64,000 nt of DNA from an uncultured Bacteroidota bacterium (lineage in GTDB: Bacteria > CLD3 > SB21 > JBBIRG01): assembly GCA_964609675.1 (NCBI GenBank), contig CAZSRX010000016.1:1659-65658 (forward strand), in the 5' to 3' direction. Positions 8,229 to 38,953 of the stretch are shown here, one piece after another. The position numbers and the translations under genes are program-made. The notes below the pieces were generated by a model. It was given only the letters and a program-made list of their open reading frames with translations. It did not search any database and was not told the origin of the DNA. The stretch's first letter is position 1, and every line of letters starts with the position of its first letter.

Positions 8229-8276
8229 AGGAATTTTTTCCGCCGCCCAGGGTTGAATTTTATAAACGAGGTTATC

Positions 8277-9425: not shown

Positions 9426-10376
9426 TTGAACTTCGTGCAGCCGGCAACGCAACCGCTCGGGCTCTACCCTCGTGAAAGCGCCGTGAATTACCTTCTGGAA
9501 CAATTTCTCGATTATCTGGCCATTGAGAAAAATCTGTCGGCAAACACCATCGATTCCTACCGGCTCGATATCCGCCGATACCTGCAGTTTGCGGAACACC
9601 AACGGCAACGCGCGTCGGTGGAGGACATTACGGATCAAGACATTTCCGCTTTCGTGCATCTGCTGGACGAACTGGGACTGGCGGCGCGGAGCGTGGCGCG
9701 CAATCTATCCGCGATACGCACGTTCCACAAATTCCTGATGAACGAAGAAATCACGGATCATGATCCAACCGCATTGGTCGAGTTGCCGAAACTGCCCAAG
9801 GCCCTGCCGCCGGTGCTGGAGGTCCACGAAGTGGAGTTAATTCTGGAACAGCCCGATACGCTGCAGTATTTGGGCCTACGCGACCGCGCCATGCTGGAAC
9901 TGCTTTACGCCTGCGGCCTCAGGATATCCGAACTGCTCGGACTAACGCAGAACCAGTTCCAGCCGGAGTCGGGATTCATCCGCGTGATGGGGAAAGGGTC
10001 CAAGGAACGCTTAGTGCCGGTGGGAAAAATCGCCATCGACTGGGTGGTGAGGTATCAGGAAAAAGTCCGGCCGAAATTCGTCCAAGCCGACGCGGCGAAC
10101 GATATTTTATTTCTGAATGCGCAGGGTAAGAAGATGAGCCGGATGGGATTCTGGAAGATTCTGAGAAAATACGTCACGCAGGCCGGTATCGAAAAGGCCA
10201 TCACGCCGCATACGTTCCGGCATTCCTTCGCCACGCATCTGCTCGAAGGCGGCGCCGACCTCCGCGTCGTTCAGGAATTGCTGGGCCATTCCGACATCGC
10301 TACCACGCAGATTTATACCCATATTGACCGCGAATACCTCAAAGAAGTGCATCACACCTATCATCCGCGGAAGTAA
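9426..10376 (+). CDS. xerD: Tyrosine site-specific recombinase of the XerC/XerD type
   Basis: N-terminal SAM-like core-binding domain ([29 protein letters not shown]). Catalytic-domain motifs [38 protein letters not shown]... with a HHTYHPRK terminus resembling XerD. The XerC-versus-XerD assignment is tentative. Confidence 0.75.
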
Positions 10377-20322: not shown

Positions 20323-22449
20323 TCAGTAAGCGAGTAACGTTTCGAGTTTATTTTTAATATCTTCTTCGTTTACTAAAACGGCCGCTTCGAGTATTCGCGA
20401 GAAGGGCACCGGAGAGTCTTTGCTGCCCAGTCGCATGACCGGGGCGTCGAGAAATTCGAAGCAGGTTTCTGCGATGCGGGCGGCGATTTCGCCGCCGAAC
20501 CCTCCGGTAATTTTATCTTCATGCACCACCAGCGCGCGGCCGGTTTTTTTTACGGATTGCCGGATCGTTTCCATATCGAGCGGAATCAGCGAACGGATAT
20601 CGATGACTTCGACGGAACGGTTTAGTTCGGCCAGTTTTGCGGCGGCGCGGAGCGACCAGTGCACGGTGGTTCCGTAAGTTATTACGGTGGCGTCCGTTCC
20701 GGGCCTGCGGATACGGGCTTTGCCGAACGGGACCACATGATCGGGCCCGGTCTTTGGGCTTTGCGCGAATATCTGGTTGTAGAGGTACTTGGGTTCCAGG
20801 AACAGCGTAACGCCGCGCGAGCGGATGGCGGTTCGCAGCAGGCCGCAGGCGTCATCGGCGAAGGCCGGCACGACGATGCGCAGACCGGGGAGCGCCGCCA
20901 TCAGGCCCTCGACATTCTGCGAGTGATACAATCCGCCGCCGATATAACCGCCACTGGCCAGGCGCAGGACGATGTTGGGGCTGTTTTGGCCGTTCGAGCG
21001 GTAATATTCATGACTGGTTTCCACCACCTGTTCCATAGCCGGCCAGACGTAATCAGCGAACTGCGCGGCTTCGATTACGATGCGGATATCGTCCCGGAAA
21101 CGCGAAAAACCGTTGGCCGTGCCGACGATATAGTCCTCGGCGATCGGCGCGTTAAACACCCGCTCCGGCCCGAATGCCTGCAGCATCCCCTTGGTAACAT
21201 TAAACACGCCGCCCTTGTCTTTGGAGGCAACGTCCTGGCCCCAGAGAAACGTGTGTGGGTTGCGCGTAAATTCTTCGTGCAGGGTCCGGTTAATCGCTTC
21301 GCGGAGTTTCTCCGTCGATTCGCCTTCGGGTACCGGCGTTTCCTCAACTTCCAGCGGTTCCGGTGTGATAAAGTCGGTAGCGGTGGACGGGTCGGGCGTG
21401 GGCGCTTCTTCGGCGCGCCGGGCGGCTTCCTGAACGGTGGTTTCGTTTTCCGTTTCGATGCGCGCCAGTTCTTCTTCCGTGAAAAATTTATTTTCTAACA
21501 AATAATTCCTGAAATTCAGGAGCGGGTCTTTGGAACGGGCTTCTTGCAGTTCTTCGGGTGAGCGGTACAATTCCTGCCGGTCGCTGTTGGAGTGCGAATG
21601 CAGTCGCAGGCAGTCCGCGTGCACCAGCGCCGGCCCTTTGCCGGCATGCACATAATCCAGCGCCGCATCCATGGCGCGGCGGCTGTCAAAGAAATCCTTG
21701 CCGTCGCAGTTGAAAACGCCGAGGTTTTTTAGCCCTTTGTAATTATCCGAAACGACGGGATTGGCCGTCTGCTGGGCAAGCGGCACGCTGATGCCGTAGC
21801 GGTTGTTCTGGATGACAAAGATGACCGGCAGTATCTCTCGGGACGCGCCGTTGAGCGCCTCGTACACATAACCTTCGGAGGACGACGCTTCCCCGAAGCT
21901 GGCGAATGCGATCGCGTCGGATTGGTAATATTTGATTGCCCGCGCTACGCCGACAGCATGCAGCGTGTGGTTGGAAACATTGGAAGATACATTCTCAATC
22001 TGAATCGACGGCTTGGCAAAATGATTGGACATATGCCGGCCGCCGCCCGCCACGTCGTCCCGGCGGCTGAGGCCGTTCAGCATGATTTCCTCCACCGTTA
22101 TTCCCGCCGCCAGGCACGTCAGCTGGTCGCGATAATACGGAAATAAAAAATCTTTACCCGGGCGAAAGGAAAGCCCTAAAGCCAGTTGGATGCCTTCGTG
22201 CCCCGCGCACATGGCCAGATACGACCATCCCTTCGCCTGACGGATGAAACGCGACGCCTGTTCGTCAATGAGCCGGCTGGTATGCGCCAGACGATACCAC
22301 GGCTCTAGCGTCGTCTTATCATAATCGGTTTTGACGGAATTATTTTTTTTCAAGTTGTTAACCCTCTGATTTATTCTTTTCAAAAATAATAACACTTTAA
22401 TAATTATTTTATTTCTGTATTTCAAGTTCATTTTATTCTGCGGATACAT
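20323..22449 (-). CDS. 2-oxoacid dehydrogenase E1 component with fused alpha and beta subunits (TPP-dependent)
   Basis: The N-terminal half has an E1-alpha TPP-binding fold (GHEGIQLALG, ASFGEASSSEG). The C-terminal half has a transketolase-like beta subunit (FNAPIAEDYIVGTANG, LPGLRIVVPA). The ORF track starts at TTG 22470, giving a Lys/Asn-rich extension; ATGs lie at 22449 and 22431. Confidence 0.75.
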   Translation of the reverse strand: MYPQNKMNLKYRNKIIIKVLLFLKRINQRVNNLKKNNSVKTDYDKTTLEPWYRLAHTSRLIDEQASRFIRQAKGWSYLAMCAGHEGIQLALGLSFRPGKDFLFPYYRDQLTCLAAGITVEEIMLNGLSRRDDVAGGGRHMSNHFAKPSIQIENVSSNVSNHTLHAVGVARAIKYYQSDAIAFASFGEASSSEGYVYEALNGASREILPVIFVIQNNRYGISVPLAQQTANPVVSDNYKGLKNLGVFNCDGKDFFDSRRAMDAALDYVHAGKGPALVHADCLRLHSHSNSDRQELYRSPEELQEARSKDPLLNFRNYLLENKFFTEEELARIETENETTVQEAARRAEEAPTPDPSTATDFITPEPLEVEETPVPEGESTEKLREAINRTLHEEFTRNPHTFLWGQDVASKDKGGVFNVTKGMLQAFGPERVFNAPIAEDYIVGTANGFSRFRDDIRIVIEAAQFADYVWPAMEQVVETSHEYYRSNGQNSPNIVLRLASGGYIGGGLYHSQNVEGLMAALPGLRIVVPAFADDACGLLRTAIRSRGVTLFLEPKYLYNQIFAQSPKTGPDHVVPFGKARIRRPGTDATVITYGTTVHWSLRAAAKLAELNRSVEVIDIRSLIPLDMETIRQSVKKTGRALVVHEDKITGGFGGEIAARIAETCFEFLDAPVMRLGSKDSPVPFSRILEAAVLVNEEDIKNKLETLLAY

Positions 22450-22664
22450 TCGGCTGAATTTTGAAATCAATTAATATTAGTTTGAAATATCCGCCGGCGT
22501 AACATCTTCCTATAGATTTTTCTTGAAATAGAAAAAAAAAAATTCTATATAGCTATAAAGTTTGTATTGCTTATCTTAAAGAAAGATGATACGCCTTTCA
22601 TAAGCTGTTCATATAATTTTCTAATTTTAATTTACCACTCATTGATTGAAGGAGCATACCGGAT

Positions 22665-24614
22665 ATGCGATGGAAAATTTTTTTGGTTTTGATTATACTG
22701 CTCGGTTTAAACAACCGGATTGTGCGGGCACAATCCCCAAACGATGTAATCATCAATGAAATACTGAACGGCTCGGTATATAAAGACGCTGTGGAATTGC
22801 TGGTAGTGAAGCCCGGCGGCGTGGATATGCGCGGATGGGTGATTACGGACCTGAACAATCCGGCAGCAACCCCCTCTACGACCGAAGGTTTTTGCACTTT
22901 ACCGATGAACCCTTTCCTGCAGGCCGTACCGCCGTTTACGCGTATCCTTCTTGTTTTTACCAAATCCACCGGCGCGGTATCGCCAAAAGCCGCGCAAGAC
23001 ACAACGGCTTCCGACGACAGCACCCTCGTGCTTTTTTCCTTCGGGCCTGACAGCTTGTTGAATCCTACACCGGCGGGTTCCGGAGTTAATTTAAGCGATA
23101 ATGACAATGTGGTGCTGATAGCCGGGTCAAACCTGTCGAGCGATCCGGTAATTGATAAAGTATTTTATGGAACCGGCAGCGACGGCTGGACCAGCGGTAC
23201 CTGGATGAATAATTTTGCCAATATCACCAGCGGTTATATCGCCTATTTTGTTAATGATTCACTGGGCAATCTTAACAATGATAACGGCGCCTCCGGCAAA
23301 GGATGGACCAGCCCCGCGGCCGAAGCCGGGCACACACTGGGACGGATTAATCCGGGACAATTACTCGGCGGGAGGCCGATACGGTTAGGCGCGGTTACAC
23401 GCACGCCGACTACGCCGGATTCCACGCAATCCGTAACGGTGCAGACGACTATCGGTTTCCTGAACCCGCCGATTACCGCAAAAGTTATATTTTCATACAA
23501 CGCCGTTACCGACAGCGTGACGATGACCAACCCGTCGGATTCCACCTATCAGGGCGTAATTCCAGCCAACCCGCCGGGAACGAAGGTTTATTATTTTATT
23601 AAAGTAACCGATAATCTGAATCATGTGGCTTTATCGGGTACGGACAGTTTTACCGTAAGCACGCCGGTGGTTTTTACTTCTATCGCTAATATACAGGCTA
23701 ATACACCCGCCTATGAAAACCAGATGGTGACCATTACGGGCATCGTCGTCATTGGCGACAGTGTACTCCGGGCCACACCGGCACGGCAGTCCTATGTGGT
23801 TGACCGTAGCATCACGTCCGGCGTCAACGGGATACAGATATACCAAGGCTCATTTACGGCCCCGAAACTGAACCGCGGCGATTCGGTTATTATCACCGGT
23901 AAAGTGATTACCTACAGCGGTACGACGGAAATTACCGATCCGATTACATTGACCGTGGTATCCACGGGAAATTCGATACCGGCGCCCATCAAGCAATCCA
24001 TCTCGCAGGTTATGAACGTGGCCGATGAAGGCAAGTGGGTGCGTATCAAAGGCACGGTGGTGGACAACTGGTCCGCTGTCGGCGGTTACAACGTTAAAGT
24101 GGACGACGGCACCGGCAATGTACTGGTGCGTATCTGGAACTCGACCGGCATTAATGGTTCGGCGTACGCTATCAATTCGGTGTTTACGTTCAATACCATC
24201 ATCGGGATTTACAATAACGCGACGCAGTTGCTGCTGGGATACGCGGCAGATGCCGGGCCGGATACGGCGGGCCAGGGCAATTTCAAAGCGAATATCCGGG
24301 TGTCGCCGCATCCGTTTAATCCCATGGCCGGCGAAAAGATTAAGTATGCACTGGCGTACGGCGAAAACGCGCGTATTGTCCTGCGTGTATTCGACATGAC
24401 CGGCCGGCTGATCACGACTCTGATTGACGAGGTTAAGTACATCGGGCGCGATGAAACGGAGGATCCGTTCCGCACCTGGGATGGCCGTACAATGGAAAGC
24501 AAGCAATTGGTGCCGGTTGGTACGTACATTATGCATCTGGAGGTAACGAATCGAAAAACCGGGAAGAGTTCCACAAAGACCGCGCCGATTGTGATCGGAA
24601 CGAAACTGAAGTAA
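22665..24614 (+). CDS. Secreted surface protein with an N-terminal lamin-tail domain (LTD), two OB-fold-like modules and a T9SS-type C-terminal sorting domain; no nuclease catalytic domain
   Basis: Signal peptide. LTD signature VIINEILNGS...VELLVVKPGGVDMRGWVITDL. Two repeats resembling the OB-fold modules of ExeM-type extracellular nucleases (IANIQANTPAYENQMVTITGIVV; ISQVMNVADEGKWVRIKGTVV). C-terminus HPFNPMAGEKIKYALAYGENARIVLRVFDMTGRLITTL...WDGRT... is T9SS-CTD-like. Confidence 0.6.
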   Translation: MRWKIFLVLIILLGLNNRIVRAQSPNDVIINEILNGSVYKDAVELLVVKPGGVDMRGWVITDLNNPAATPSTTEGFCTLPMNPFLQAVPPFTRILLVFTKSTGAVSPKAAQDTTASDDSTLVLFSFGPDSLLNPTPAGSGVNLSDNDNVVLIAGSNLSSDPVIDKVFYGTGSDGWTSGTWMNNFANITSGYIAYFVNDSLGNLNNDNGASGKGWTSPAAEAGHTLGRINPGQLLGGRPIRLGAVTRTPTTPDSTQSVTVQTTIGFLNPPITAKVIFSYNAVTDSVTMTNPSDSTYQGVIPANPPGTKVYYFIKVTDNLNHVALSGTDSFTVSTPVVFTSIANIQANTPAYENQMVTITGIVVIGDSVLRATPARQSYVVDRSITSGVNGIQIYQGSFTAPKLNRGDSVIITGKVITYSGTTEITDPITLTVVSTGNSIPAPIKQSISQVMNVADEGKWVRIKGTVVDNWSAVGGYNVKVDDGTGNVLVRIWNSTGINGSAYAINSVFTFNTIIGIYNNATQLLLGYAADAGPDTAGQGNFKANIRVSPHPFNPMAGEKIKYALAYGENARIVLRVFDMTGRLITTLIDEVKYIGRDETEDPFRTWDGRTMESKQLVPVGTYIMHLEVTNRKTGKSSTKTAPIVIGTKLK

Positions 24615-24652
24615 ATGATTTATTGGTTTAATATAAAGGTTCTGAGGTATAT

Positions 24653-25606
24653 ATGAATAAAAAAGCGATCCTTCTTCTTGCAATCCTATTGGGATATGCG
24701 CAATGGGGCTTTGGCCAGGTGGCCACGGAGATGCCGCCGCAGGGTCCACGAGCCAGCGCGCTGGCCGGGACGTTTGTTGCCGTTGCCAACGACGGCTGGG
24801 CGATGTTTCATAATCCCGCCGGATTGGCTAACCTGAAATCCATGCAAGCGTTTAGCTCCTATCAGGTGCTGTATATCAATTCCCTGACCAACATGATGGG
24901 CGGATTTGCGCTGCCGTCCGGGACCCTTTTAGGCAGCGACCGGTTCGGAACGGTGGGAATATACTATGAATACCTGAATACGGGGGTGGACAAGGGGCAG
25001 TCGCTGACGGGGCAATCCGAGCGGCTTGCCACAGAGTGGGCGCTGGGGTTTTCTCACGGCATGACACTGCTCAAGGATGTCCGTTCGTCTCTGTCATTCG
25101 GTTATAACCTGAAAATGTATTATCTGGATTACGGTACGTCCGCCGGCATGAGCGGCGACGGCAGCGACGGCACCGATCTGGGAAATATATATAAGCTGGG
25201 GATGGATCTCGGTGTCATGGCTTCCCTGCGCGAGCGGGTGTGGCTGGGCGCTTACCTGATGAATTTCAACCAGCCGAAAATCGGCACTACCGGTCAGGTC
25301 CGGGAACTGCCCCAGAAACTATCTGTCGGCGCTTCGTACATGCCCCATGACGGGGTTCTTACCGCCGTCGGGCTGGAACGGAGTACCAGCAAGAACACCC
25401 GCATCAAAGGCGGCGTCGAAGCCGAACTTGCGGACGTGTCCAATTTTACCGTCCACGGCCGCTTCGGGATAATCTCAAATCCCAACACGTACACCATCGG
25501 TTTCGGGGCGGCCTATCACGGCGTTCATTTTGATTATGCGCTGATGATTCACCCCATACTCAGCACCACGCATCAGTTCGGGCTGATGTATGATTTCGGG
25601 AAATAG
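24653..25606 (+). CDS. Outer-membrane beta-barrel of the PorV/PorQ/FadL-like family (T9SS-associated shuttle-type outer-membrane protein)
   Basis: Signal peptide. N-terminal signature ASALAGTFVAVANDGWAMFHNPAGLANL, characteristic of PorV/PorQ and FadL-like barrels. Alternating hydrophobic beta-strand pattern, 317 aa. Confidence 0.45.
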   Translation: MNKKAILLLAILLGYAQWGFGQVATEMPPQGPRASALAGTFVAVANDGWAMFHNPAGLANLKSMQAFSSYQVLYINSLTNMMGGFALPSGTLLGSDRFGTVGIYYEYLNTGVDKGQSLTGQSERLATEWALGFSHGMTLLKDVRSSLSFGYNLKMYYLDYGTSAGMSGDGSDGTDLGNIYKLGMDLGVMASLRERVWLGAYLMNFNQPKIGTTGQVRELPQKLSVGASYMPHDGVLTAVGLERSTSKNTRIKGGVEAELADVSNFTVHGRFGIISNPNTYTIGFGAAYHGVHFDYALMIHPILSTTHQFGLMYDFGK

Positions 25607-25615
25607 CACGCAACC

Positions 25616-28183
25616 ATGATCCAATCATCAGGAATGACTATGTTTCGAATAACACTTATAACCGCAATTATGCTTGGGGCCGCTCTGAGCCTGCGCGCGC
25701 AGGAAGGGGTTTATCATAAGGACCACAAGCTGGACATTAACAACGCGACGCTCGCTGAAATCGAGCGCCTGCCCATTTCCGGGGAACTGGCGCGGAGGAT
25801 TTACGAGCGGATCCAATATAGCGGGCCGCTGGAAAGCATCTTCGAGCTCAACCAGATCGAGGGCGTGACGCAGGAATTGTTTAACCAATTGAAGCCCATA
25901 ATCGCCGTTCGGCCGTTTGAGAAGGATGAAGACCTGAAGCGCCTCGAGGATAATTATTACAAAATTGAACGCTGGGCAAGCACCTCCGAAGGTACGACCG
26001 AAAATCTTGTCGATCAGTGGTACGACCAGCTCATCAATCCGATTAATATCAATAAAGCGGATTATTTTGACCTGATCAACCTGCCAAACGTCAGCCCGAT
26101 TGATGCGGCGGCAATCGTTAAGCATATCCGCAATCAGGATGAAATCAAAAGCCGCAGCGATCTCCGCGGAGTCAGCGGCCTGGGTAGTTTTGCGTTCAAC
26201 AGCGTGGACGACTTTGTGGTGTACAAGGACCCGGACGAAAAAAACCGGTTCCGGGGTAATTACACCTGGATCTACAAGAACATTCCGTTTATTTCCGGTA
26301 GTTCCGATAATGCCGAGGATATCAAGCAGCTGGTAGAACGCGACAATCCGTGGAACTCCTACCATAAGGCGCGGCTTAAGTACGGCGCCAAATATAAAGC
26401 CGGATTTTCCGCGGAACGCAAGCTCGGTCAGGATCCGTATTTTTATAAATATTATCTGAGTTACGAGGACAAATACGGCGACGATCTGAAAGTCAAAATG
26501 ATTTTTGGTAATTATCTGGCTTCCTTCGGCCACGGCGTGGTGATGGAAAACACCGATTTTTTCTCGTCGCGTAAATCGGGGTTTGGATTCCAGAAACGGG
26601 CGAACGGTATCTTCGGGGATATTTCACGGACTAATGAATTTTCCCTTCGCGGCGCGGCGGCGGAGGCTTCCTGGAAGTGGTTTCGCGCAGACGCCTTTTA
26701 TTCCTACAACACCCGCGATGCGGTCGTCAATCCGGACGGCACGTTTTCCGCGCTGATTGTGATGACCCCGCGGATGCCGTACGGACTGAGCAGCGACACG
26801 CTCAACCGGCCGAACAGCCTGGTGCCGAGCAATATGCGCAATGCCGTCACGGAAATCACTTATGGGGGCCACCTGACCTATTCGTTGGCTCCCGGCATAA
26901 ATATCGGCGCTACGGCCTATGAAAGCCTTTATGACCGGCCCCTCGACTTCCAGATTAATACCGTGCTCAACACCGACGGCAAGCCCAAGTTTCTGAACGA
27001 TTTCGGCAATTCGGTCGATGCCGAGATTGCCGCTTCGTATGAGTCCACAGCCAAGTCATCGATGTGGGACAAAGCCCGGGCTTCGCGTTCCGTGTACGGT
27101 ATGGATTTTACTTATACCTACAAAAACATCGTTTTTTCCGGCGAACACGCCCGGCTGTATAAGCAGGACAGCGTGTACCGGGTAACCGTGAATAACGAAA
27201 CCGTTCGGCGCACGGTCCGCCAGCGCGATCCCCGCGCCACCGTCCTGATGGCCTACACGCAGTTTCGCACGCTGAATTTCCTGGTACTCTACCGGAATTA
27301 CGATCTGCAGTTTGACAATCCCTACCAGCGTTCGTTCTCAAACTATGCGCGGTTCAAGAGTTCCATTTACGAAGACGAGTTTTATCTTGCCGATAACATT
27401 TATTCCGAACTCTGGAGCACATCCTATCAACCCCAGGCCGAGCGCGGGTTCTACACAAATCTCCGGTACCAGATATCGGAGAAATGGCTGACCGCGCTGG
27501 ATTACGATACCTGGACGCGCGTGGCGGACAACATGCGCTATTACCGCTGGGTAACGCGGCTGGAATACCGGCCGTTGTTCAACATGCGTATTCAGGCGAG
27601 CAATAAGTTCCAGTCCCGCGGCTATAACCCGCTGATGCCGACGAGTTATCTGGTCCGCGAATCCATTATTCGCGTGATTCTGCGGCTGTCGCGGTTCGAC
27701 GAAATGACTGTGACATATTTCAACGGGTTTACGGAATGGCCCAGCCGGCCGCGGCTTTCCGACGCGCCCGGCGGCGACGGCAGCGCCGGTAACGACAACG
27801 ATACCCCCCGCGGCAACGCAGGCTCTCCGGGCGATATGTTCGGCGTACAGGTGACACACTATTTTAATAATAATTTTAAAATCATCGGCTCCACCCAAAT
27901 CTACAAGGGCTTCTACTGGACGTTTGAGGATACGGATTTTCGCGTGTTCAATGCGCCGAACGTAGCCACCCGCTACTGGGTCGCCGCTTTTGCCCGGCTG
28001 AGCCCGAACCTGTCCGTGCGCCTGAAATATTCTTACGACCATCAGGAAGCGCAGACAGGCGTGCAGGGCTCGCGAATCCCCGTCAAAGGGGTTACCGATT
28101 ACCGCAATGCGCCCAAGTATGACAATCCGTATATTATAAAGAATAATTCGGACATACGTTTCCAGCTGGATTATAGTTTTTAA
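25616..28183 (+). CDS. Large (855 aa) secreted outer-membrane-type protein with two tandem ComEA-like helix-hairpin-helix DNA-binding modules at the N-terminus and a long beta-rich (barrel-like) C-terminal region
   Basis: Signal peptide (MFRITLITAIMLGAALSLRAQ). HhH module 1: INNATLAEIERLPISGELARRIYERIQYSGPLESIFELNQIEGVTQELFNQLKPII. HhH module 2: ININKADYFDLINLPNVSPIDAAAIVKHIRNQDEIKSRSDLRGVSGLGSFAFNSV. About 600 aa follow, rich in Tyr/Gly/Asn with alternating polarity and ending in an aromatic-rich ...FQLDYSF terminus. Confidence 0.55.
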   Translation: MIQSSGMTMFRITLITAIMLGAALSLRAQEGVYHKDHKLDINNATLAEIERLPISGELARRIYERIQYSGPLESIFELNQIEGVTQELFNQLKPIIAVRPFEKDEDLKRLEDNYYKIERWASTSEGTTENLVDQWYDQLINPININKADYFDLINLPNVSPIDAAAIVKHIRNQDEIKSRSDLRGVSGLGSFAFNSVDDFVVYKDPDEKNRFRGNYTWIYKNIPFISGSSDNAEDIKQLVERDNPWNSYHKARLKYGAKYKAGFSAERKLGQDPYFYKYYLSYEDKYGDDLKVKMIFGNYLASFGHGVVMENTDFFSSRKSGFGFQKRANGIFGDISRTNEFSLRGAAAEASWKWFRADAFYSYNTRDAVVNPDGTFSALIVMTPRMPYGLSSDTLNRPNSLVPSNMRNAVTEITYGGHLTYSLAPGINIGATAYESLYDRPLDFQINTVLNTDGKPKFLNDFGNSVDAEIAASYESTAKSSMWDKARASRSVYGMDFTYTYKNIVFSGEHARLYKQDSVYRVTVNNETVRRTVRQRDPRATVLMAYTQFRTLNFLVLYRNYDLQFDNPYQRSFSNYARFKSSIYEDEFYLADNIYSELWSTSYQPQAERGFYTNLRYQISEKWLTALDYDTWTRVADNMRYYRWVTRLEYRPLFNMRIQASNKFQSRGYNPLMPTSYLVRESIIRVILRLSRFDEMTVTYFNGFTEWPSRPRLSDAPGGDGSAGNDNDTPRGNAGSPGDMFGVQVTHYFNNNFKIIGSTQIYKGFYWTFEDTDFRVFNAPNVATRYWVAAFARLSPNLSVRLKYSYDHQEAQTGVQGSRIPVKGVTDYRNAPKYDNPYIIKNNSDIRFQLDYSF

Positions 28184-28258
28184 ACGGAGCAATTATAGGA
28201 AACACACGGCACGAATAAAAAAAAATACCTAGGATAAAATAAATTCTTCGGAGGTTCT

Positions 28259-29653
28259 GTGAAACGATTAAACCTGTTTATATTCGGATGGACGCTATGC
28301 CTGACGGTGTTGGCGGCGGACATGCTCAGCGCACAAACTTATTTTGATTACATTATCGGCAAGAAACGGGACAGCTTCAACGCCCGGTCGATGGCGTTGG
28401 GTCATACGGGCGCTGTATCCAGCTACCGGGCATCGGCGATTATGACAAACCCCGCGTTGCTGTGGCAGGGTTTTGCGCCCGGTGCGGCGCCGCATCAGGT
28501 GCTGGTGGACGCCTCGTATGTCGCCCTGCGGCCCAGCGAAAACCGTTCTTTCCCTCTGCTGGATACCTTCGGCGACGTGATTACCGAGACGATCTATGCT
28601 ACCAACAGCCCCCTGTATTACAATACCGATATCGGCGCGCTGTACAAATTTAATGATCATTTATATTTCGGTGCGGGGTCGTTTGCGTATTATACGTTTT
28701 ATTACGATTACAAAGAACGGTTATCCGCGCAGTTGCCCAGTTCAGCCGTCAACCGGGATCCCTTTCTGGACAATCAGATTTCTTATGGCAACGGTACCTG
28801 GCGCACGTATTCTTTAAGCGTGAGTACCCACTGGATGGAACAGATTGGATTCGGCGCCACGCTGAATTATATTACGGGTTCGGGATTCCGCGACCATTAC
28901 CGCTACAGCCTGCTGAAAACCGATTACTCCGGAATCCATAACACGATCGATTACCGCAACCGGACCAACGGCGGCCGTTCGATGAATCTTATTCTGGGCG
29001 CTTCGTATCAGGTGACGCCGCATATTCTGCTGGGCGCATCCATGACCATGCCCTGGTCCATCAAGACGAAAGGCAATATCTTTTATCCCGGCATGGATAC
29101 CACGCTGGTATTACCGCGGCATTTCGCGGATACAACCGGCTCTTACGGAAATCCCGTACCGCTGGATATCAAGCATTCGCAGCCCGTACAAGTTTCTCTG
29201 GGCGTAGAATACCGTCCGAAGAACGAGTTGTTCTCCCGCTTCATCGTGGACGTCAATTTCACGAACTGGAAATCCTACAAGCAAACGTTTAGCCGCGCCG
29301 TGCCGGTGCAGGGCGATACGGTAAACGCGTTCCGGCCGCCGTTCAAAGATGTCTGGGACATCCATGTTGGCGTGGAACATATTCTTTTCGGCAGCGTGCC
29401 GCTCCGGTATGGGTTTTCGCACATCGGTTCACCGATGAATAATGCGCTGACCACGACGGCCTTCAGTATCGGTACGGGAAAGGAATGGGACGCGTTTAAA
29501 TTTGACGCGGCCATCGAAATCGCCAACCGGGATTATAAATACCTAATTCTGTTCCCGCAAACGGCCGCCGACCGATCCTCTCTGGACCGGGTGGAAGAAT
29601 CGACAGTAAGTTTCCAGTTCTCAGTGTGCTACCGTTTCGGTTTTGTTAAATAA
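28259..29653 (+). CDS. FadL/PorV-superfamily outer-membrane beta-barrel transporter-like protein
   Basis: GTG start 5 nt after GGAGG. Signal peptide. N-terminal signature ARSMALGHTGAVSSYRASAIMTNPALL of the OMPP1/FadL/TodX and PorV families. 464 aa with beta-strand periodicity and a C-terminal YRFGFVK. Confidence 0.5.
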   Translation: MKRLNLFIFGWTLCLTVLAADMLSAQTYFDYIIGKKRDSFNARSMALGHTGAVSSYRASAIMTNPALLWQGFAPGAAPHQVLVDASYVALRPSENRSFPLLDTFGDVITETIYATNSPLYYNTDIGALYKFNDHLYFGAGSFAYYTFYYDYKERLSAQLPSSAVNRDPFLDNQISYGNGTWRTYSLSVSTHWMEQIGFGATLNYITGSGFRDHYRYSLLKTDYSGIHNTIDYRNRTNGGRSMNLILGASYQVTPHILLGASMTMPWSIKTKGNIFYPGMDTTLVLPRHFADTTGSYGNPVPLDIKHSQPVQVSLGVEYRPKNELFSRFIVDVNFTNWKSYKQTFSRAVPVQGDTVNAFRPPFKDVWDIHVGVEHILFGSVPLRYGFSHIGSPMNNALTTTAFSIGTGKEWDAFKFDAAIEIANRDYKYLILFPQTAADRSSLDRVEESTVSFQFSVCYRFGFVK

Positions 29654-29673
29654 TCTAAAAGAAAAGAGTACCT

Positions 29674-31320
29674 ATGATCCGAACGATCCTTTGCCTGACG
29701 CTGGTTTTTGCCTCATCCGTCTTTGCGCAGAAAAAATATTCATGGCCGGATGACCAATACCAGAAGATCACGCTTATCTTTACCAATGACGTTCACGGCG
29801 GCATCACGCTGACCGAAGCGTCGTTCATCAATCCCGATTTCCCGCCGATTATCGGTGGAGGGCCCTCGGCCGCCCGATATATCAACCTCTACCGGGAAAA
29901 AGCCTTAGAAAAAAAATGGGGCGTCCTTTTACTCGATCAGGGCGACTGGTTTCAGGGAACGCTGGTGGGTACGCGTTCGGGCGGCTCGGCCGTGTTCGAT
30001 TATATGAACATGATTAAATATGATGCCGCTGTCATCGGCAACCATGACTTTGACATGGGAAAAGACAATGTTGTCAAGCTGGTGGAAAAGGCCCAATTCC
30101 CTGTCCTGGCCGCCAATATCATCGATAAAAGCACCAATAGCATCGCGGATTTTGTGAAGCCCTACCTAATCAAGGAATTATACGGCATTAAAATCGGCAT
30201 CATCGGTTTAGCCACGCGTTCAACTAAGGTCATGAGTTATCCGAAGCATATCGAAGGACTCGATTTTCTGCCGGAAATTCCTGTTGCAAGAAAGTATGTA
30301 AAAAAACTGCGTGAAGAAGAAGGATGCGATTTCATTATTCTGGCCACGCACTCCTGGCTGGACTACAATCCCGCCGAAGGATACGCCAATCTTTTAAAGG
30401 ATAAAGCTAAAAATAAAGATTTTGAAACCAGCACGGCCAGCGCCATCGAGATCGCGCATTTTGTGGAAGGCATTGACGTGATTCTCGGCGGGCATATTCA
30501 CAAGGGTCACGACAAACCCTGGGAAGAGCCGGATAATCATACATTGATAATTCAGTCTTATGCCAACAGCAGTTCATCACTGGGACAGATTAATTTTTAT
30601 TTTGATCGCCGCACCAAAACATTTGCCGGTTATGACTTCGACAACGATAAAGGCGCGATGCTAACGCTATTTGCGGATGAATTCTGGCCGGATCAGGCTT
30701 TTTATGATTCTATCGTTGTGCTGCAGCGGCAATATGAAAAGGGCTTTGACGACGTGCTCGGCGTCAGCGAGGAACCGCTCACCCGTACTGCCGGCGAATC
30801 CACCATGGGCAATGTGGTTGTGGACGCCATGCGGGCCGAAGGCAAGGCGGATGTAGCCGTATCCAATTATGGCGGCATACGGGCCGAGATCAAGTCCGGA
30901 ACCATTACCGCCCGCGACGTCTTTAAGGTCATGCCTTTTGACAATAAAATTGTCCTTATGCGCGTAACCGGTGCGTTTATCAAGGAACTGGTGGAAGATC
31001 GTGTTGCGGGCAGCAGCAACGGCATGCTGGTTTCAGGAATGAAGGTGGTTGCCGACAAGAATCTTCCGGACAGGGAGCGCGTAACCCTTCTGGAGATCGG
31101 CGGCAAACCGTATGACCCGGATGCGCTCTACACCCTGGCGGTTTCCGATTATCTGGCAGAAGGCAATTCCGGTTTCAGCCGACTCACCACCGTCAATCAG
31201 GAAGAAATAGCCCAGACGGGTATTGCCATCCGCGACGCCCTCATCAATTATATAAAAGCGCAGACGCCACTCAAGCCCAAACTGGAAGGCCGTTTCAAAA
31301 TTATTAAGAAAAACCTGTGA
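29674..31320 (+). CDS. Secreted bifunctional metallophosphatase/5'-nucleotidase (UshA/NadN-like)
   Basis: Signal peptide. Calcineurin-like motifs (FTNDVHGG, GNHDFD, GGHIHKGH). C-terminal 5'-nucleotidase substrate-binding domain. Confidence 0.8.
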   Translation: MIRTILCLTLVFASSVFAQKKYSWPDDQYQKITLIFTNDVHGGITLTEASFINPDFPPIIGGGPSAARYINLYREKALEKKWGVLLLDQGDWFQGTLVGTRSGGSAVFDYMNMIKYDAAVIGNHDFDMGKDNVVKLVEKAQFPVLAANIIDKSTNSIADFVKPYLIKELYGIKIGIIGLATRSTKVMSYPKHIEGLDFLPEIPVARKYVKKLREEEGCDFIILATHSWLDYNPAEGYANLLKDKAKNKDFETSTASAIEIAHFVEGIDVILGGHIHKGHDKPWEEPDNHTLIIQSYANSSSSLGQINFYFDRRTKTFAGYDFDNDKGAMLTLFADEFWPDQAFYDSIVVLQRQYEKGFDDVLGVSEEPLTRTAGESTMGNVVVDAMRAEGKADVAVSNYGGIRAEIKSGTITARDVFKVMPFDNKIVLMRVTGAFIKELVEDRVAGSSNGMLVSGMKVVADKNLPDRERVTLLEIGGKPYDPDALYTLAVSDYLAEGNSGFSRLTTVNQEEIAQTGIAIRDALINYIKAQTPLKPKLEGRFKIIKKNL

Positions 31321-31340
31321 TGGCTTGAAGTTATACCATA

Positions 31341-31382
31341 AAAAAACTCCCTGTACGCGATGGTTCAGGGAGTTTTTTTTTA
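31341..31382. terminator. Bidirectional rho-independent terminator between the 5'-nucleotidase gene and hisS
   Basis: AACTCCCTG-N12-CAGGGAGTT hairpin preceded by an A6 tract and followed by a T9 tract. Confidence 0.7.
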
Positions 31383-31397
31383 AGAATACGGTATGAT

Positions 31398-32663
31398 TTA
31401 GGCGCGGGAAAGTTCCTTTTCCATAACCGGAAGGAGCGCGTCCAGAGAAAGCGTCTGCTGTTCGCCGTTTTCCATATTTTTGAGCGTGCATTCATTTCTC
31501 AGGAGTTCGTCATCGCCCACGATTACCACAAAACGGGCATTCAGCCGGTTGGCGTCGCGCATCTGCGCTTTGAGACTGCGGCTGAGATAATCCATTTCGG
31601 CGGCGATGCCGTGGTGGCGGAGCGCCTGCAGGTACGAGGCCATGGCTTCGCGTGCGGCATCTCCCAGGGCCGCGATATACACCATCACCGAGTCCCGCGG
31701 GCCGAATGCCAGGTTCATCGATTCCATAACAAGGATCAGGCGTTCCATGCCAGCCGCGAAACCCACGGCAGGCGTTTCTTTACCGCCTAAGTCTGAGCAA
31801 AGCAGATCATAACGGCCGCCGCCGCCGAGCGCGTTCTGTGAACCCAGATGACTACTTTGGATTTCGTAAGCCGTCTTGGTGTAATAATCCAATCCGCGCA
31901 CCAGCCGTCCGTCCACGGTGTATCGGATGTTCATATTGGTCAGAATTTTCTTTACCTTTTCAAAGTGCTGGCCGCATTCGCCGCAGAGATAGTCATGAAT
32001 CAACGGAGCGTCTTGAGTCAGGGCGATATCGGATTCATTTTTGGAATCCAGAATACGCATCGGATTAATTTCCAGACGGCGCCGGCTTTCCGGTGAAAGC
32101 TGGTCATGCAGGGTCCTCAGAAAATCCGTCAGGGTTTGCCGGTACGGCGGGCGGCAGCGCGGGCAGCCGACGCTGTTGATGATGAACTGCAGATCCCGGA
32201 TGCCGAGTTCCTCGTAGATGGTCAAGGCGACCAGCATCGTTTCCACATCCGTTTCCGGTGCGCTACTCCCAATGGCTTCGACGCCGAACTGATGAAATTG
32301 GCGTAAGCGGCCTTTTTGCGGACGTTCCTGACGGAACATCGGGCCCAGATAATAAACTTTGGTCAGCCCTTGCTGGGCGCCGAGGCTGTTCTGAATGTAG
32401 GCACGCATTACGGAGGCGGTCATCTCCGGTCGGAGCGTGAGGCTCTCGCCGCCTTTATCCATGAAGGTATACATTTCCTTCCCCACGACGTCGGTGGCTT
32501 CGCCGATGCTCCGGCTGAATAATTCGGTATATTCAAAAAGCGGCGTGCGGATTTCCTTATAATTAAAACGCCGCATTACGTCTGTAATCCGCTCTTCGAT
32601 ATAATGCCACTTGGAAATATCGGCCGGCAGAACGTCTTTGGTGCCGGTGGGAATCTGGTACAT
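31398..32663 (-). CDS. hisS: Histidine--tRNA ligase
   Basis: Class-II aaRS motifs and HisRS signature (YQIPTGTKDVLP, FRQERPQKGRLRQFHQFGVE, GGGRYDLL). C-terminal anticodon-binding domain. The ATG is at 32663, one codon after the GTG at 32666. Confidence 0.9.
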   Translation of the reverse strand: MYQIPTGTKDVLPADISKWHYIEERITDVMRRFNYKEIRTPLFEYTELFSRSIGEATDVVGKEMYTFMDKGGESLTLRPEMTASVMRAYIQNSLGAQQGLTKVYYLGPMFRQERPQKGRLRQFHQFGVEAIGSSAPETDVETMLVALTIYEELGIRDLQFIINSVGCPRCRPPYRQTLTDFLRTLHDQLSPESRRRLEINPMRILDSKNESDIALTQDAPLIHDYLCGECGQHFEKVKKILTNMNIRYTVDGRLVRGLDYYTKTAYEIQSSHLGSQNALGGGGRYDLLCSDLGGKETPAVGFAAGMERLILVMESMNLAFGPRDSVMVYIAALGDAAREAMASYLQALRHHGIAAEMDYLSRSLKAQMRDANRLNARFVVIVGDDELLRNECTLKNMENGEQQTLSLDALLPVMEKELSRA

Positions 32664-32687: not shown

Positions 32688-34484
32688 TCAGAATGAACCC
32701 GGAGAATTAATTTCCTGCGATAACCGCTGCAGATGGCCGGATACTTCCACCATTTTCTGGCTTTTACGATGGAGTTCCTTGGCGCTGGCATCGAGGTCCT
32801 TGATGCTGGACCAGACCTGCTCGTGCGCAATCCGCTGTTGCTGGATAGCGATGGATATATTGCCGACGGAATCGGTAACCTGGCGGATGGCGCTATGAAT
32901 TTCCTGAAAAGACAGCTGGGCGTCATTGGCGTTGCGTACCGCCTGATTGACCTGTTTGAGTTCTTTTTCCATGGCCAAAACAGAGACATGGGATGTTTTT
33001 TTTACGTCCCCGATGATTTTTTTTATTTCTTCAGTCGAATCGGAAATATTCTGCGCCAGCTGGCGGATTTCTTTGGCCACTACGCCGAACCGCTCGCCCA
33101 TCTCACCGGCTGTGGCTGTTTCGATGGCGGCGTTGAAAGCGAGGATTTTTGTGTGATCGGTGACATAATTGATGATGCGGATGACATCCTCTATCTGTAC
33201 CATCTTTAAACTCAGGTCCATAATGCGCTGGGAACTGGCGATGGCTTCCTGATGAATATGATCGATACTCTGCAGGGTTTTGTCGAGATGCTCACGGCCT
33301 CTTTCAATTTCTTTCAGACCGTTCTGGGTCATGGTAGCGGCCAGGACGGCATCGGTGGAAATCTGGTTGACGGAGTGAACCAGTTCTTCGACGGTGGACG
33401 ATAATTGCGAGAGGGCGGATGCCTGACTGTATGCCACACCGGCTTCGTATTTGGTAGCGTTCAGGATTTCTTCGGTTTTTTCCCGGATATCCATACGGTG
33501 CCGGCGTATGTTTTCGATTTCCGGCGACCAATGATGCATCAGAAGCATCACCGCGTTGCCCAATTGCCCGCGTTCGTCGCTGAGAAAAAACCCGTATGGT
33601 TTGACAGCGGAGCCGTTGATGCGGTGGTTCAGAAAACGCTTGAGATAATCCTGTGTGTACTGGAGAGGGCGTATCATCGAATGGGAAATTAGCCAGGAAA
33701 TATATCCGGCCAGACCGATCGCGGCAAATAACAGTAAAATCATCTTAATGTAGAAGACATCCTGAAGATGACTATCAATCGGTCGCAAAGCCGCCCATAT
33801 GATAAAGGTAAAGACCGATACAAAAGGAACGCTGATTTGCAGAATCAGCTTGACGCGGTAACTGAGAAAACCGGATTCATCTTCTTTGACGTAATATAAT
33901 GACGGAAAAACGTTGGTAAGTTCCTGGGCTATGGTGATCATGCGGTTTTCTGCGGAGAGAAACACCATGACAGCCAGAGGGCCAAGCAATAACATACCGA
34001 TGAATAAGGCATGCACGATGCCGAGGATGACGGCCGTTGTATCGGCCGGAGTGGCTATCGCAAAAATAATTTCACGGATCAGGATCAGTGCAAAGGCCGG
34101 CGCCAGCAGTCCGTATGCCGTTATGCGGAACGGATAAGCGGTAAGCGCGCCGCCGATGAGTTTGCTGATAAATTCAGAATCGCCATGGAGCGGCCGGCCG
34201 GAGGTCATTTTGAAAAAGGAATAGGCATGCCGTAAGGCGTATCGATGCACCGCGAGGCCGGCTCCCGTAACCAGAATCACGGAAAGCAGAGCCGAAAACC
34301 ATGGATAAACCCGCAGGCTTCCGGATATGAAAATAATGTCATAATAAAAATACATTCCCGCAAGCGTCAGCAACCAGCAAGGCCACAGCAATTCGCCAAA
34401 GAGTCGCCACAGATAGCGGGTGGAGAATGTCGGTGTGAAAACAGGCGTCGAGGAGGGTTTGGTTTCATCGTTTATCGGCGTCAT
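32688..34484 (-). CDS. Methyl-accepting chemotaxis protein with a multi-TM N-terminal module, HAMP domain and MA signalling domain
   Basis: About 270 aa with at least 6 hydrophobic helices. The HAMP-like linker is followed by a methyl-accepting signalling domain (…ASSQRIMDLSLKMVQIEDVIRIINYVTDHTKILAFNAAIETATAGEMGERFGVVAKEIRQLA...). Confidence 0.85.
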   Translation of the reverse strand: MTPINDETKPSSTPVFTPTFSTRYLWRLFGELLWPCWLLTLAGMYFYYDIIFISGSLRVYPWFSALLSVILVTGAGLAVHRYALRHAYSFFKMTSGRPLHGDSEFISKLIGGALTAYPFRITAYGLLAPAFALILIREIIFAIATPADTTAVILGIVHALFIGMLLLGPLAVMVFLSAENRMITIAQELTNVFPSLYYVKEDESGFLSYRVKLILQISVPFVSVFTFIIWAALRPIDSHLQDVFYIKMILLLFAAIGLAGYISWLISHSMIRPLQYTQDYLKRFLNHRINGSAVKPYGFFLSDERGQLGNAVMLLMHHWSPEIENIRRHRMDIREKTEEILNATKYEAGVAYSQASALSQLSSTVEELVHSVNQISTDAVLAATMTQNGLKEIERGREHLDKTLQSIDHIHQEAIASSQRIMDLSLKMVQIEDVIRIINYVTDHTKILAFNAAIETATAGEMGERFGVVAKEIRQLAQNISDSTEEIKKIIGDVKKTSHVSVLAMEKELKQVNQAVRNANDAQLSFQEIHSAIRQVTDSVGNISIAIQQQRIAHEQVWSSIKDLDASAKELHRKSQKMVEVSGHLQRLSQEINSPGSF

Positions 34485-34488
34485 CGGA

Positions 34489-37431: not shown

Positions 37432-37471
37432 AATCGGGTTATATTAAACCTATAAAGATATAAGTTTTTCT

Positions 37472-38941: not shown

Positions 38942-38953
38942 GACCGCCGGATA

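Follow-up and report, generated by a model that had tools for sequence, protein, structure and literature searches.

The way DNA passes through the outer membrane has been worked out well only for the type IV pilus/secretin route, and a TonB-dependent DNA route with a surface DUF5689 protein has been proposed only recently for Bacteroidota. The Bacteroidales DNA-utilization locus ddbABCDEF encodes a TonB-dependent transporter (DdbC), a DUF5689 surface protein (DdbD) and secreted and periplasmic nucleases (PMC12478041). In Riemerella anatipestifer, outer-membrane genes for transformation specify a surface DUF5689 protein (RA0C_RS04920), an outer-membrane barrel (RS04915) and a periplasmic helix-hairpin-helix (HhH) protein (RS02645) (PMC8459023).

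Here we analysed a 64,000 bp stretch of DNA (the window) from an uncultured Bacteroidota bacterium, in which a single 855-aa protein joins a large outer-membrane barrel to two ComEA-type HhH modules, a previously undescribed fusion. The first-pass annotation had not recognised this combination as a described family, and our searches agree: the barrel (residues 212–855) matched no Pfam or NCBIfam model, and a literature search on the architecture or the cluster found nothing specific, with the Ddb and Riemerella systems surfacing as analogues. We consider the 855-aa protein, with a probability of roughly 55%, to be the outer-membrane subunit at the centre of a five-gene module, complete in itself, that acquires extracellular nucleic acid in T9SS-bearing FCB lineages.

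Comparison with described systems

Like the Ddb locus, which comes from the same superphylum and follows a similar PUL-like logic, the module places a surface OB-like/DUF5689 protein, a putative DNA binder, beside an outer-membrane barrel and predicted SPI- and SPII-targeted nucleic-acid hydrolases; a member of the surface OB/LTD/DUF5689 family was found near the barrel, at most four genes upstream of it, in 51 of 52 loci. In contrast to Ddb, the conduit is not a TonB-dependent transporter and has 24–26 strands and HhH modules at its N-terminus, the T9SS and not a lipoprotein pathway delivers the surface proteins, the locus includes two PorV/BamG-like barrels as integral parts, and the window version carries a nucleotidase in place of nucleases. 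A TonB-dependent transporter of the DdbC, RA0C_RS04915 or SusC type (N-terminal plug, TonB box, 22 strands) was rejected for the 855-aa protein because a Pfam profile search gave no Plug, TonB_dep_Rec or CarboxypepD_reg match.

Three functional pieces are held in common with Riemerella, namely a surface DUF5689-type protein, an outer-membrane beta-barrel and a periplasmic HhH. There, however, the HhH protein is a separate gene located elsewhere and the barrel resembles TonB-dependent transporters, whereas here a single polypeptide contains both barrel and HhH, the barrel family is unrelated, and the linked genes are those of catabolic enzymes and not comEC/dprA. The domain set of LTD, OB folds and EEP is also that of the extracellular nucleases ExeM, Xds and NucH (PMC6085458), although the module spreads these domains over a T9SS surface protein that is non-catalytic and enzymes of the EEP or nucleotidase type that are encoded separately, arranged about a putative complex of outer-membrane barrels. 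In the PorV-SprA, PorQ-PorZ and BamG-BamA assemblies (PMC12611786, PMC12365241), small barrels of the FadL family associate with a larger one and/or retain proteins at the surface, and both genes flanking the HhH barrel match PorV_fam, the family of the downstream gene also matching BamG. In contrast to these pairs, scores here lie below the curated PorV, PorQ and BamG cut-offs, the partner would be the HhH barrel instead of SprA or BamA, and we infer the physical interaction.

The HhH-barrel protein

Table 1. Features of the HhH-barrel protein and its neighbours, in window positions.
Feature	Position	Strand	Basis
Module gene 1, secreted LTD-like / Ig-like / two OB-fold protein with T9SS C-terminal sorting domain, 649 aa	22665..24614	+	
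Module gene 2, small outer-membrane barrel, PorV/PorQ-family relative, 317 aa	24653..25606	+	NF033709 E = 3e-17
Whole ORF, HhH-HhH-barrel outer-membrane protein, 855 aa	25616..28183	+	ORF list, translation
Signal peptide region, residues 1–28	25616..25699	+	Hydrophobic helix 9–28 in model
HhH module 1, residues 36–98, ComEA/EEPD1-type fold, degenerate hairpin 1 (LPISG)	25721..25909	+	HHH_3 and TIGR00426 matches; EEPD1, ComEA alignments
Acidic three-helix linker, residues 99–139	25910..26032	+	Helices 105–112, 114–123, 129–140 (model)
HhH module 2, residues 140–203, NVSPIDAAAI motif conserved	26033..26224	+	Best HHH_3 stretch 141–201
Transmembrane beta-barrel, residues 212–855, ending in aromatic C-terminal signal LDYSF	26249..28180	+	DSSP: 26 strands; family core 24
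Strand 5–6 loop, long and highly conserved, residues 304–343	26525..26644	+	Mean column conservation 0.70 vs 0.51 for strands
Beta-hairpin insertion, residues 519–534, DSSP strands 12–13, lineage-specific	27170..27217	+	Column conservation 0.05–0.19
Second long loop, residues 563–608, highly conserved, FDNPYQRSFSNY motif	27302..27439	+	Conservation 0.67
Module gene 4, FadL-family barrel, PorV/BamG-like, 464 aa	28259..29653	+	Toluene_X E = 3.6e-7
Module gene 5, UshA-like 5'-nucleotidase / phosphodiesterase, 548 aa	29674..31320	+	Metallophos and 5_nucleotid_C; UshA and multifunctional nucleotidase models

The true start of the open reading frame is probably M9 at position 25640, judging from the representative of its 100%-identical cluster, which has 847 aa and so begins at that residue. 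Cleavage is predicted between LRA and Q (site read by eye), and the protein is Sec-exported. The two tandem ComEA-like modules named in the first-pass annotation were borne out: HHH_3 (PF12836) is significant over two stretches, residues ~36–98 and ~140–203 (65.2 bits, E = 5.8e-18; Pfam gathering threshold 27 bits), and precomputed PF12836 matches are present in 47 of 48 full-length homologues. The best sequence match to the tandem arrangement was EEPD1 (PDB 9yi2, E = 3.4e-18), in which tandem HhH are coupled to an EEP nuclease domain; about half of the gene modules encode EEP enzymes. Unlike the soluble EEPD1 of eukaryotes, the present protein has its HhH pair on a membrane barrel, with EEP domains on separate polypeptides. 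PsbU, a non-DNA-binding HhH_3 protein, is a weak match to module 1. A GspK-like T2SS module was tried and rejected (E = 0.0094, below threshold).

The periplasmic competence DNA receptor ComEA (PDB 8dfk, 8dss, 2duy) is free or membrane-anchored, whereas the modules here are barrel-tethered and in tandem, are not basic, and score far below the cut-offs of both ComEA NCBIfam models (TIGR01259, 41.6 bits vs 152.35; TIGR00426, 25.8 vs 53.1). In V. cholerae ComEA the hairpin-1 Gly and Lys residues are needed for binding to DNA, which K63E abolishes. On alignment, both modules lack the G-h-G (GxG) of hairpin 1 and the two lysines through which ComEA contacts DNA (V. cholerae G60, K62/K63): module 1 has Leu or Glu where ComEA has the Gly / Lys pair, and D163 of module 2 occupies the position equivalent to the critical K63. 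Module 2 retains the GLG of its second hairpin, its NVSPID aligns without gaps to GVGPSK of B. subtilis ComEA (8dfk), and P161, D163 and A164 are almost invariant across homologues. Since the ComEA DNA-contact residues are replaced, DNA binding by the modules is unproven, and the family mean net charges of modules 1 and 2 (−2.6 and +1.2; linker −4.9) call for caution over non-specific dsDNA binding. What stands of their initial description as DNA-binding is the link to DNA or nucleic acid, mainly through conserved neighbours; the hairpin-1 residues, the near-invariant D163 and the acidic to neutral charge weaken the case for DNA binding by the modules themselves.

The remainder of the protein, first described as barrel-like with an aromatic C-terminus, was confidently modelled as just such a beta-barrel, of 24–26 strands. 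We found the signal peptide, even strand number, short turns, long loops and C-terminal aromatic residue of outer-membrane beta-barrels, F855 being kept in at least 90% of family members. The long loops all fall at odd-numbered strand connections and the even-numbered connections are fixed at 2–5 residues, and this loop-length pattern in the model therefore places the N-terminal HhH modules in the periplasm, not at the surface. The earlier suggestion of a surface DNA receptor was consequently abandoned for this protein; that role is predicted to fall to the upstream T9SS-exported OB-fold/LTD protein. The loop at residues 304–343, of 35–41 aa throughout the family and with G307, R319 and G331 invariant, is a candidate lumen constriction, gate or binding element. 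The FDNPYQRSFSNY motif of the second long loop was picked as the most conserved for a genome scan, and the hairpin insertion is missing from most homologues.

Against PapC/FimD ushers (24 strands), MtrB and LptD (26 strands), the barrel gave identities of 8–12% and TM-scores of 0.2–0.33, a likeness generic to barrels. In contrast to those systems, there are no usher plug/Ig domains or LptD jellyroll here, and no chaperone, cytochrome or LptE genes. A chaperone-usher pore was rejected (no usher Pfam match, no plug/Ig domains, no chaperone or pilin neighbours, identity 8–9%), as was an SprA-like T9SS translocon, SprA being missing from the structural match lists.

Gene context and distribution

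The check on homologues and neighbours proposed with the first-pass annotation returned 482 species genomes that encode relatives of the HhH barrel (Marinimicrobia, Calditrichota, Zixibacteria, Gemmatimonadota and Bacteroidota-like MAGs) and a conserved five-gene module, kept across hundreds of marine and sediment bacterial species. The module consists, in order, of a T9SS-exported LTD/OB-fold/DUF5689 protein, a PorV/PorQ-like barrel, the HhH barrel, a PorV/BamG-like barrel and a UshA-like nucleotidase. One or two T9SS-sorted LTD/OB-fold/DUF5689 proteins are encoded upstream of the HhH barrel, which nearly always lies between two small FadL-family (PorV/PorQ/BamG-like) barrels, with gene 2 directly upstream in 59 and gene 4 directly downstream in 63 of 69 loci.

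The 649-aa product of gene 1 is a predicted surface nucleic-acid binder; taken alone it has sub-threshold Pfam matches only, and its model is poor outside residues 240–530. The 317-aa barrel reached 63.2 bits with NF033709 against a curated cut-off of 90 bits, and in its family PorV_fam is matched by 27/27 members at E ≤ 1e-3 (best 2.8e-23); by these profile scores we treat it as a relative of the PorV/PorQ family rather than a confirmed member. In the family of gene 4, PorV_fam is matched by 27 and BamG by 15 of 29 members, the window copy having no BamG match. A BAM subunit role for the 464-aa barrel was rejected, as BamG matches occur only in some members and the other genes of the operon have nothing to do with OMP assembly. 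The 548-aa UshA-like enzyme carries an SPI-type signal peptide and is predicted to be periplasmic.

Either a UshA-like nucleotidase architecture or a pair of Metallophos-EEP protein and EEP lipoprotein was found in 44 of 54 loci. The nucleotidase is swapped for EEP nuclease-type enzymes in about half of the loci, EEP-domain enzymes with SPI and lipoprotein signals, predicted to be nucleases, being present in 23 of 54; the window module has the UshA-like nucleotidase only and no nuclease gene. The EEP superfamily also includes phosphatases that are not nucleases. No comEC, dprA or comF gene was found within the window or recurring beside the module. A promoter/terminator scan of positions 22300–31600 stayed near shuffled background and gave no interpretable site (promoter-like 18 vs 11.1 ± 3.6 shuffled; terminator-like 13 vs 11.5). 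PAP2 phosphatases and nucleoside phosphorylases flank the module now and then.

Proposed function and alternative explanations

Capture and import of extracellular nucleic acid is the most likely role of the five-gene cluster, and the strongest evidence for a nucleic-acid role is the conserved gene context, more than the HhH modules. We propose that T9SS would export the OB-fold/LTD proteins, whose C-terminal domains would be held at the surface by the flanking PorV/BamG-like barrels, and that these barrels may dock on the large HhH barrel by analogy with PorV on SprA and BamG on BamA. The surface proteins would bind extracellular DNA or RNA which, either intact or after trimming by EEP lipoproteins in the loci that have them, would cross the wide HhH barrel, with the two ultra-conserved loops gating its passage. 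The tethered periplasmic HhH modules could then receive the chain as it arrives or provide a dock for the periplasmic enzyme, and the nucleotidase or Metallophos-EEP enzyme would release nucleosides and phosphate for uptake. Because the searches detected neither a plug domain nor a TonB-dependent receptor family, import would proceed without TonB drive and would be powered from the periplasmic side, through binding and hydrolysis there. Against import of nucleic acid stand HhH modules without ComEA DNA contacts and net acidic or neutral, a window module without a nuclease, an EEP superfamily to which non-nuclease phosphatases also belong, and a window OB-fold protein with sub-threshold matches and a partly poor model. 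A bolder version, which we advance tentatively and think doubtful, would see in the HhH barrel a monomeric outer-membrane translocon for nucleic acid that belongs to a new class and dispenses with TonB-type elements: a 24-strand pore with built-in periplasmic 'catch' modules. Two PorV/BamG-like barrels as scaffolds and the OB-fold proteins displayed by the T9SS would complete a nucleic-acid 'utilisome', the main environmental DNA/RNA route (for food, possibly transformation) of Marinimicrobia, Calditrichota, Zixibacteria and Gemmatimonadota, and one that would need neither a type IV pilus secretin nor a TonB-dependent receptor.

The acidic modules without ComEA DNA contacts, and the weak match of module 1 to PsbU, would also fit a barrel that is a scaffold and not a conduit. 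It and the two PorV/BamG-like barrels would then anchor T9SS-exported OB-fold/LTD proteins through which the cell adheres to extracellular DNA in particles or biofilm matrix, and the HhH would be periplasmic protein-docking or envelope-tethering modules. The FadL-family barrels PorV, PorQ and BamG are indeed known anchors or scaffolds in the FCB superphylum. We nevertheless regard this as unlikely: a barrel of 24–26 strands with two ultra-conserved long loops is big for simple anchoring, the cargo could be anchored by the small barrels without it, and adhesion by itself would not account for phosphoesterases, both periplasmic and lipoprotein, being so tightly linked to the module. Less probable again is a DNA-import route for natural transformation, in which the module would be the functional counterpart of RA0C_RS04920, RS04915 and RS02645, with barrel and HhH protein fused, and long DNA would pass to ComEC instead of serving as food. 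The components map one for one onto the Riemerella model, the Ddb study calls such loci and transformation systems related (PMC12478041), and with 24–26 strands the barrel is comparable in size to PapC, MtrB and LptD, through which folded or bulky substrates travel. However, the module ends in nucleotide- or nucleic-acid-degrading enzymes in 44 of 54 loci, which points to catabolism, comEC, dprA and comF do not accompany it, and the HhH DNA-contact residues are degenerate; the transformation reading is in any case compatible with acquisition of nucleic acid and not exclusive of it.

In the least probable of these explanations, the HhH barrel would be a specific porin that supplies the periplasmic UshA-like enzyme with small phosphorylated solutes (nucleotides, dinucleotides, NAD, short oligonucleotides or other organophosphates) and transports no polymeric DNA. 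The nucleotidase-only module of the window and the occasional flanking phosphatases and phosphorylases are consistent with it, and UshA/NadN-type enzymes use nucleotides and NAD as substrates in the periplasm of Vibrio and Haemophilus. Nucleoside and nucleotide channels known so far are, however, small barrels, and a 24–26-strand barrel with surface OB-fold/LTD/DUF5689 proteins and EEP enzymes fits a polymer better.

If acquisition of extracellular nucleic acid is indeed its role, the HhH barrel family would represent a third solution to DNA passage, a wide single-chain barrel with ComEA-type modules on its periplasmic face, acting with PorV/BamG-like barrels and T9SS cargo. The module would also provide a clean test of the idea that binding modules tethered in the periplasm can bias the import of a polymer, in place of TonB or pilus retraction. 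In the ocean interior and in sediments, extracellular nucleic acid is a major pool of phosphorus and nitrogen; the carrier lineages are abundant there and for the most part uncultured, and the module is therefore a candidate metagenome marker for DNA foraging. The PorV/BamG barrel family would likewise gain a third candidate role, beyond T9SS and BAM.

The HhH barrel protein

The HhH barrel protein is encoded by an intact 855-codon open reading frame (ORF) at 25616–28183 of the window, and the ORF check found no comparable ORF on the opposite strand of this interval. A database protein with 100% identity begins at M9 of the ORF, a start that would give a classic signal peptide, MFRITLITAIMLGAALSLRA, predicted to be cleaved before Gln. 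The two tandem helix-hairpin-helix (HhH) modules reported in the first-pass annotation were both recovered, at approximately residues 36–98 and 140–203, as significant matches to Pfam HHH_3 (E = 5.8e-18, 65.2 bits; cut-off 27), and the protein is an HHH_3-domain protein. Searching the PDB with a 48-sequence family profile matched the tandem HhH of EEPD1 (9yi2, E = 3.4e-18) as well as the ComEA chains 8dss, 8dfk and 2duy. NCBIfam ComEA models also matched both regions at scores far under the model cut-offs, and membership of ComEA itself was rejected on these scores, the hairpin-1 residues and the architecture. For the remaining 650 residues the profile gave no PDB sequence match, and no Pfam or NCBIfam model was found.

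According to the DSSP string and the family alignment, the even-numbered strand connections of the barrel (residues 212–855) are all 2–5 residues and near-constant in length family-wide, and the long connections (25, 40, 43, 49, 46, 26 and 31 residues) are all odd-numbered. The C-terminal residue is a nearly invariant Phe in the alignment. This is the standard pattern of an outer-membrane protein (OMP) whose N and C termini are both periplasmic, thus the N-terminal HhH modules are predicted to be periplasmic, as is ComEA, and not exposed on the surface as had been proposed. Most of the 48 homologues in the alignment lack strands 12–13, thus the family core comprises 24 strands; in the window lineage they form a specific beta-hairpin insertion in an otherwise 4-residue external loop. 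Although external loops are usually the most variable part of OMPs, loops 304–343 and 563–608 are more conserved than any other segment of the protein (0.70 and 0.67, compared with 0.51 for strands) and nearly fixed in length across the family, suggesting that both have a function and possibly fold into the lumen.

The proposal that the HhH modules bind DNA holds at the level of fold and family, but is doubtful in detail. In V. cholerae ComEA, DNA binding requires the hairpin-1 GIG motif and K62/K63, and the K63E and G60V/E substitutions abolish uptake (PMC3879209). An ungapped alignment pairs HhH module 2 (LPNVSPIDAAAI) with B. subtilis ComEA (ISGVGPSKAEAI); both hairpin-1 glycines are replaced, and the key Lys position is taken by D163, a residue with at least 90% conservation across the family. 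In HhH module 1 the corresponding positions carry Leu or Glu. The second hairpins retain G-h-x (GVT and GLG in the window protein; GID and GLS in the consensus), and the family mean net charge is −2.6 for module 1, −4.9 for the linker (residues 99–139) and +1.2 for module 2. The modules may bind nucleic acid via hairpin 2, or may have turned into docking or gating modules.

A conserved five-gene module

The HhH barrel gene is the third of five co-directional genes spaced 9–75 nt apart. In a clustering of ORFs from 84 loci the families of these five genes were the only recurrent ones, present in 83, 73, 70, 68 and 57 loci, with the next most frequent neighbour family in only 16. Conditional on available flank, the PorV/Q-like barrel is immediately upstream of the HhH barrel in 59/69 loci, the FadL-like barrel immediately downstream in 63/69, and the OB-fold protein at most four genes upstream in 51/52. 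This five-gene linkage, like the domain content, barrel fold and coherence of the family, is established. By eye, all five genes have predicted signal peptides that cleave before Gln (VRA↓Q, GFG↓Q, LRA↓Q, LSA↓Q and VFA↓Q). Gln at +1 has been described as a rule for signal-peptidase-I substrates in Bacteroidota, and these signal peptides would be consistent with an FCB-superphylum host.

Features of the window
Feature	Position	Strand	Length	Description
	8253–9395	+		Adenosine deaminase
	9426–10376	+		XerC/D-type tyrosine recombinase
	18428–20200	+	590 aa	Right-handed beta-helix protein, T9SS sorting domain
	20323–22470	opposite to module		E1 dehydrogenase
Gene 1	22665–24614	+	649 aa	LTD-like / Ig-like / two OB folds, T9SS C-terminal domain
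Gene 2	24653–25606	+	317 aa	PorV/PorQ-like barrel
Gene 3	25616–28183	+	855 aa	HhH barrel
Strands 12–13	27170–27217			Residues 519–534 of gene 3, hairpin insertion
Gene 4	28259–29653	+	464 aa	FadL-family barrel, PorV/BamG-like
Gene 5	29674–31320	+	548 aa	UshA-like nucleotidase
Chemotaxis cluster	32688–39988	−		MCP, 980-aa Hpt/HATPase/CheW/receiver protein, CheR with TPR repeats, CheB
	60049–63516	−	1155 aa	DUF4175 protein

Forty members of the gene 1 family, which often occurs as two tandem copies, include 33 with LTD (best 7.6e-28), 28 with the nucleic-acid OB fold PF01336 (best 1.9e-19), eight with DUF5689 (best 4.7e-10) and many with T9SS sorting domains. Among the proteins related to it by profile are LTD+EEP nucleases, LTD+Endonuclease_1 and PLD-nuclease+DUF5689 proteins; compared with ExeM-type nucleases, the gene 1 domains correspond to the non-catalytic modules. 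The confidently modelled part (residues 240–530) matches MCM-N, RPA, Stn1 and aaRS anticodon OB folds, and also HIN domains, including 4jbm, the comparator structure used for DdbD (PMC12478041).

Genes 2 and 4 encode FadL-superfamily barrels. PorV_fam was matched in 27/27 scanned members of the gene 2 family, some of which also matched PorQ, PorV2 or PorP/SprF, and in 27/29 of the gene 4 family, where BamG was matched in 15/29. BamG forms a 14-strand barrel, which binds laterally to BamA and holds a surface protein (PMC12611786). The gene 5 position is filled in 44/54 loci by one or other of two interchangeable forms: Metallophos plus 5_nucleotid_C, as in the window (24/54), or a Metallophos-like-EEP fusion carrying an SPI signal and, after it, an EEP-only protein whose signal is of the lipoprotein type (23/54). 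The fusion (L025:13767–16699, L014:15358–16887 and approximately 20 further loci) replaces the 5_nucleotid_C architecture; its Metallophos-like N-domain is 34–39% identical to the window nucleotidase, its EEP domain is C-terminal, and the EEP-only lipoprotein always follows it.

In a scan of one genome per species, relatives were found in 482 genomes. The best 80 are from Marinimicrobia/Fidelibacterota, Calditrichota, Zixibacteria, Gemmatimonadota and MAGs labelled Bacteroidota, of which these MAGs are nearest to the window protein (66–76% identity); Cloacimonadota and Balneolaceae also have members. The barrel alone, used as a phmmer query against 1.84 billion representatives, retrieved only 182 clusters, and in every full-length match it begins approximately 190–300 residues into the protein, thus the barrel is not found without an N-terminal extension. 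The most divergent members retain at least the PorV/Q-like and barrel genes. The most divergent of all, a 685-aa protein from a Balneolaceae MAG (L005:7225–10058), lacks HhH module 1. Its only remaining partner is the PorV/Q-like gene upstream; the OB-fold protein, FadL-like barrel and nucleotidase are all missing from its vicinity. This suggests a minimal unit made up of the small barrel and the HhH barrel.

A TARA Oceans Gemmatimonadota contig (L002:11957–18502) carries an expanded DNA-processing version of the locus, in which the module is followed by Endonuclease_1 and two metallo-beta-lactamase-fold proteins, with a second HHH_3 protein (600 aa), DUF3006 and a 1195-aa protein with three LTD domains. 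In 16 loci a sensor kinase lies near the module, approximately 6–8 kb downstream of the barrel gene, as at L042:17011–20634 (−), where the 1208-aa protein combines Reg_prop propeller repeats, Y_Y_Y, PAS, HisKA_2 and HATPase. This sensor layout is similar to that of hybrid two-component regulators in the polysaccharide-utilization loci of Bacteroidota, and the kinase may regulate the module.

A putative nucleic-acid acquisition system

Evidence for function comes chiefly from genomic context: the nucleic-acid role first proposed is favoured by the conserved neighbours, but not by the detail of the HhH modules, in which ComEA contact residues are replaced. We estimate a probability of roughly 55% that the module captures and imports nucleic acid, with periplasmic breakdown. 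OB/LTD proteins would be exported by the T9SS, and their C-terminal domains held by flanking PorV/BamG-like barrels docked on the HhH barrel; an arrangement in which the barrel is a scaffold for DNA-adhesive surface proteins, without transport, is unlikely. Extracellular nucleic acid captured by these surface proteins would cross via the wide HhH barrel, controlled by loops 304–343 and 563–608; a porin for small nucleotides only is the least probable alternative. In the import reading the periplasmic HhH modules would then take the incoming chain or position a periplasmic enzyme, with breakdown completed by the nucleotidase or EEP enzymes. Since no plug or TonB-dependent receptor family was matched in Pfam or NCBIfam, the direction of import would be set by binding and hydrolysis in the periplasm. 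A transformation conduit, which is compatible with nucleic-acid acquisition, appears slightly less plausible than the scaffold.

The closest systems are Bacteroidales ddbABCDEF (PMC12478041) and the Riemerella transformation genes (PMC8459023), both of which pair a DUF5689 protein on the surface with a barrel in the outer membrane; Riemerella also requires a separate periplasmic HhH protein (PMC8459023). The family appears analogous to these on paper, yet is a member of neither: its barrel is no TonB-dependent transporter, its HhH part is fused to the barrel, its surface proteins are predicted T9SS cargo and not lipoproteins, and two FadL-family barrels are integral to the module. Likeness to ushers, MtrB and LptD is generic. 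No description of the barrel or module was found in the literature, Pfam or NCBIfam, and we infer a new barrel family at the core of what would be a known kind of system, the FCB-superphylum outer-membrane nucleic-acid acquisition loci. The module is widespread, conserved and experimentally approachable, and its HhH modules are atypical.

Other genes in the window

The beta-helix protein encoded just upstream of the module, from which it is separated by the E1 dehydrogenase gene, is predicted to be further T9SS cargo. The chemotaxis cluster suggests that the host is likely motile. Motility is uncommon in many Bacteroidota, a hint that the lineage may be deep-branching or Rhodothermia/Balneolia-like. 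The adenosine deaminase gene adjoins the recombinase gene; its product could act on nucleosides after their uptake, but the gene is 13 kb away from the module. The sole match of the 1155-aa protein was DUF4175 (E = 9.7e-15).
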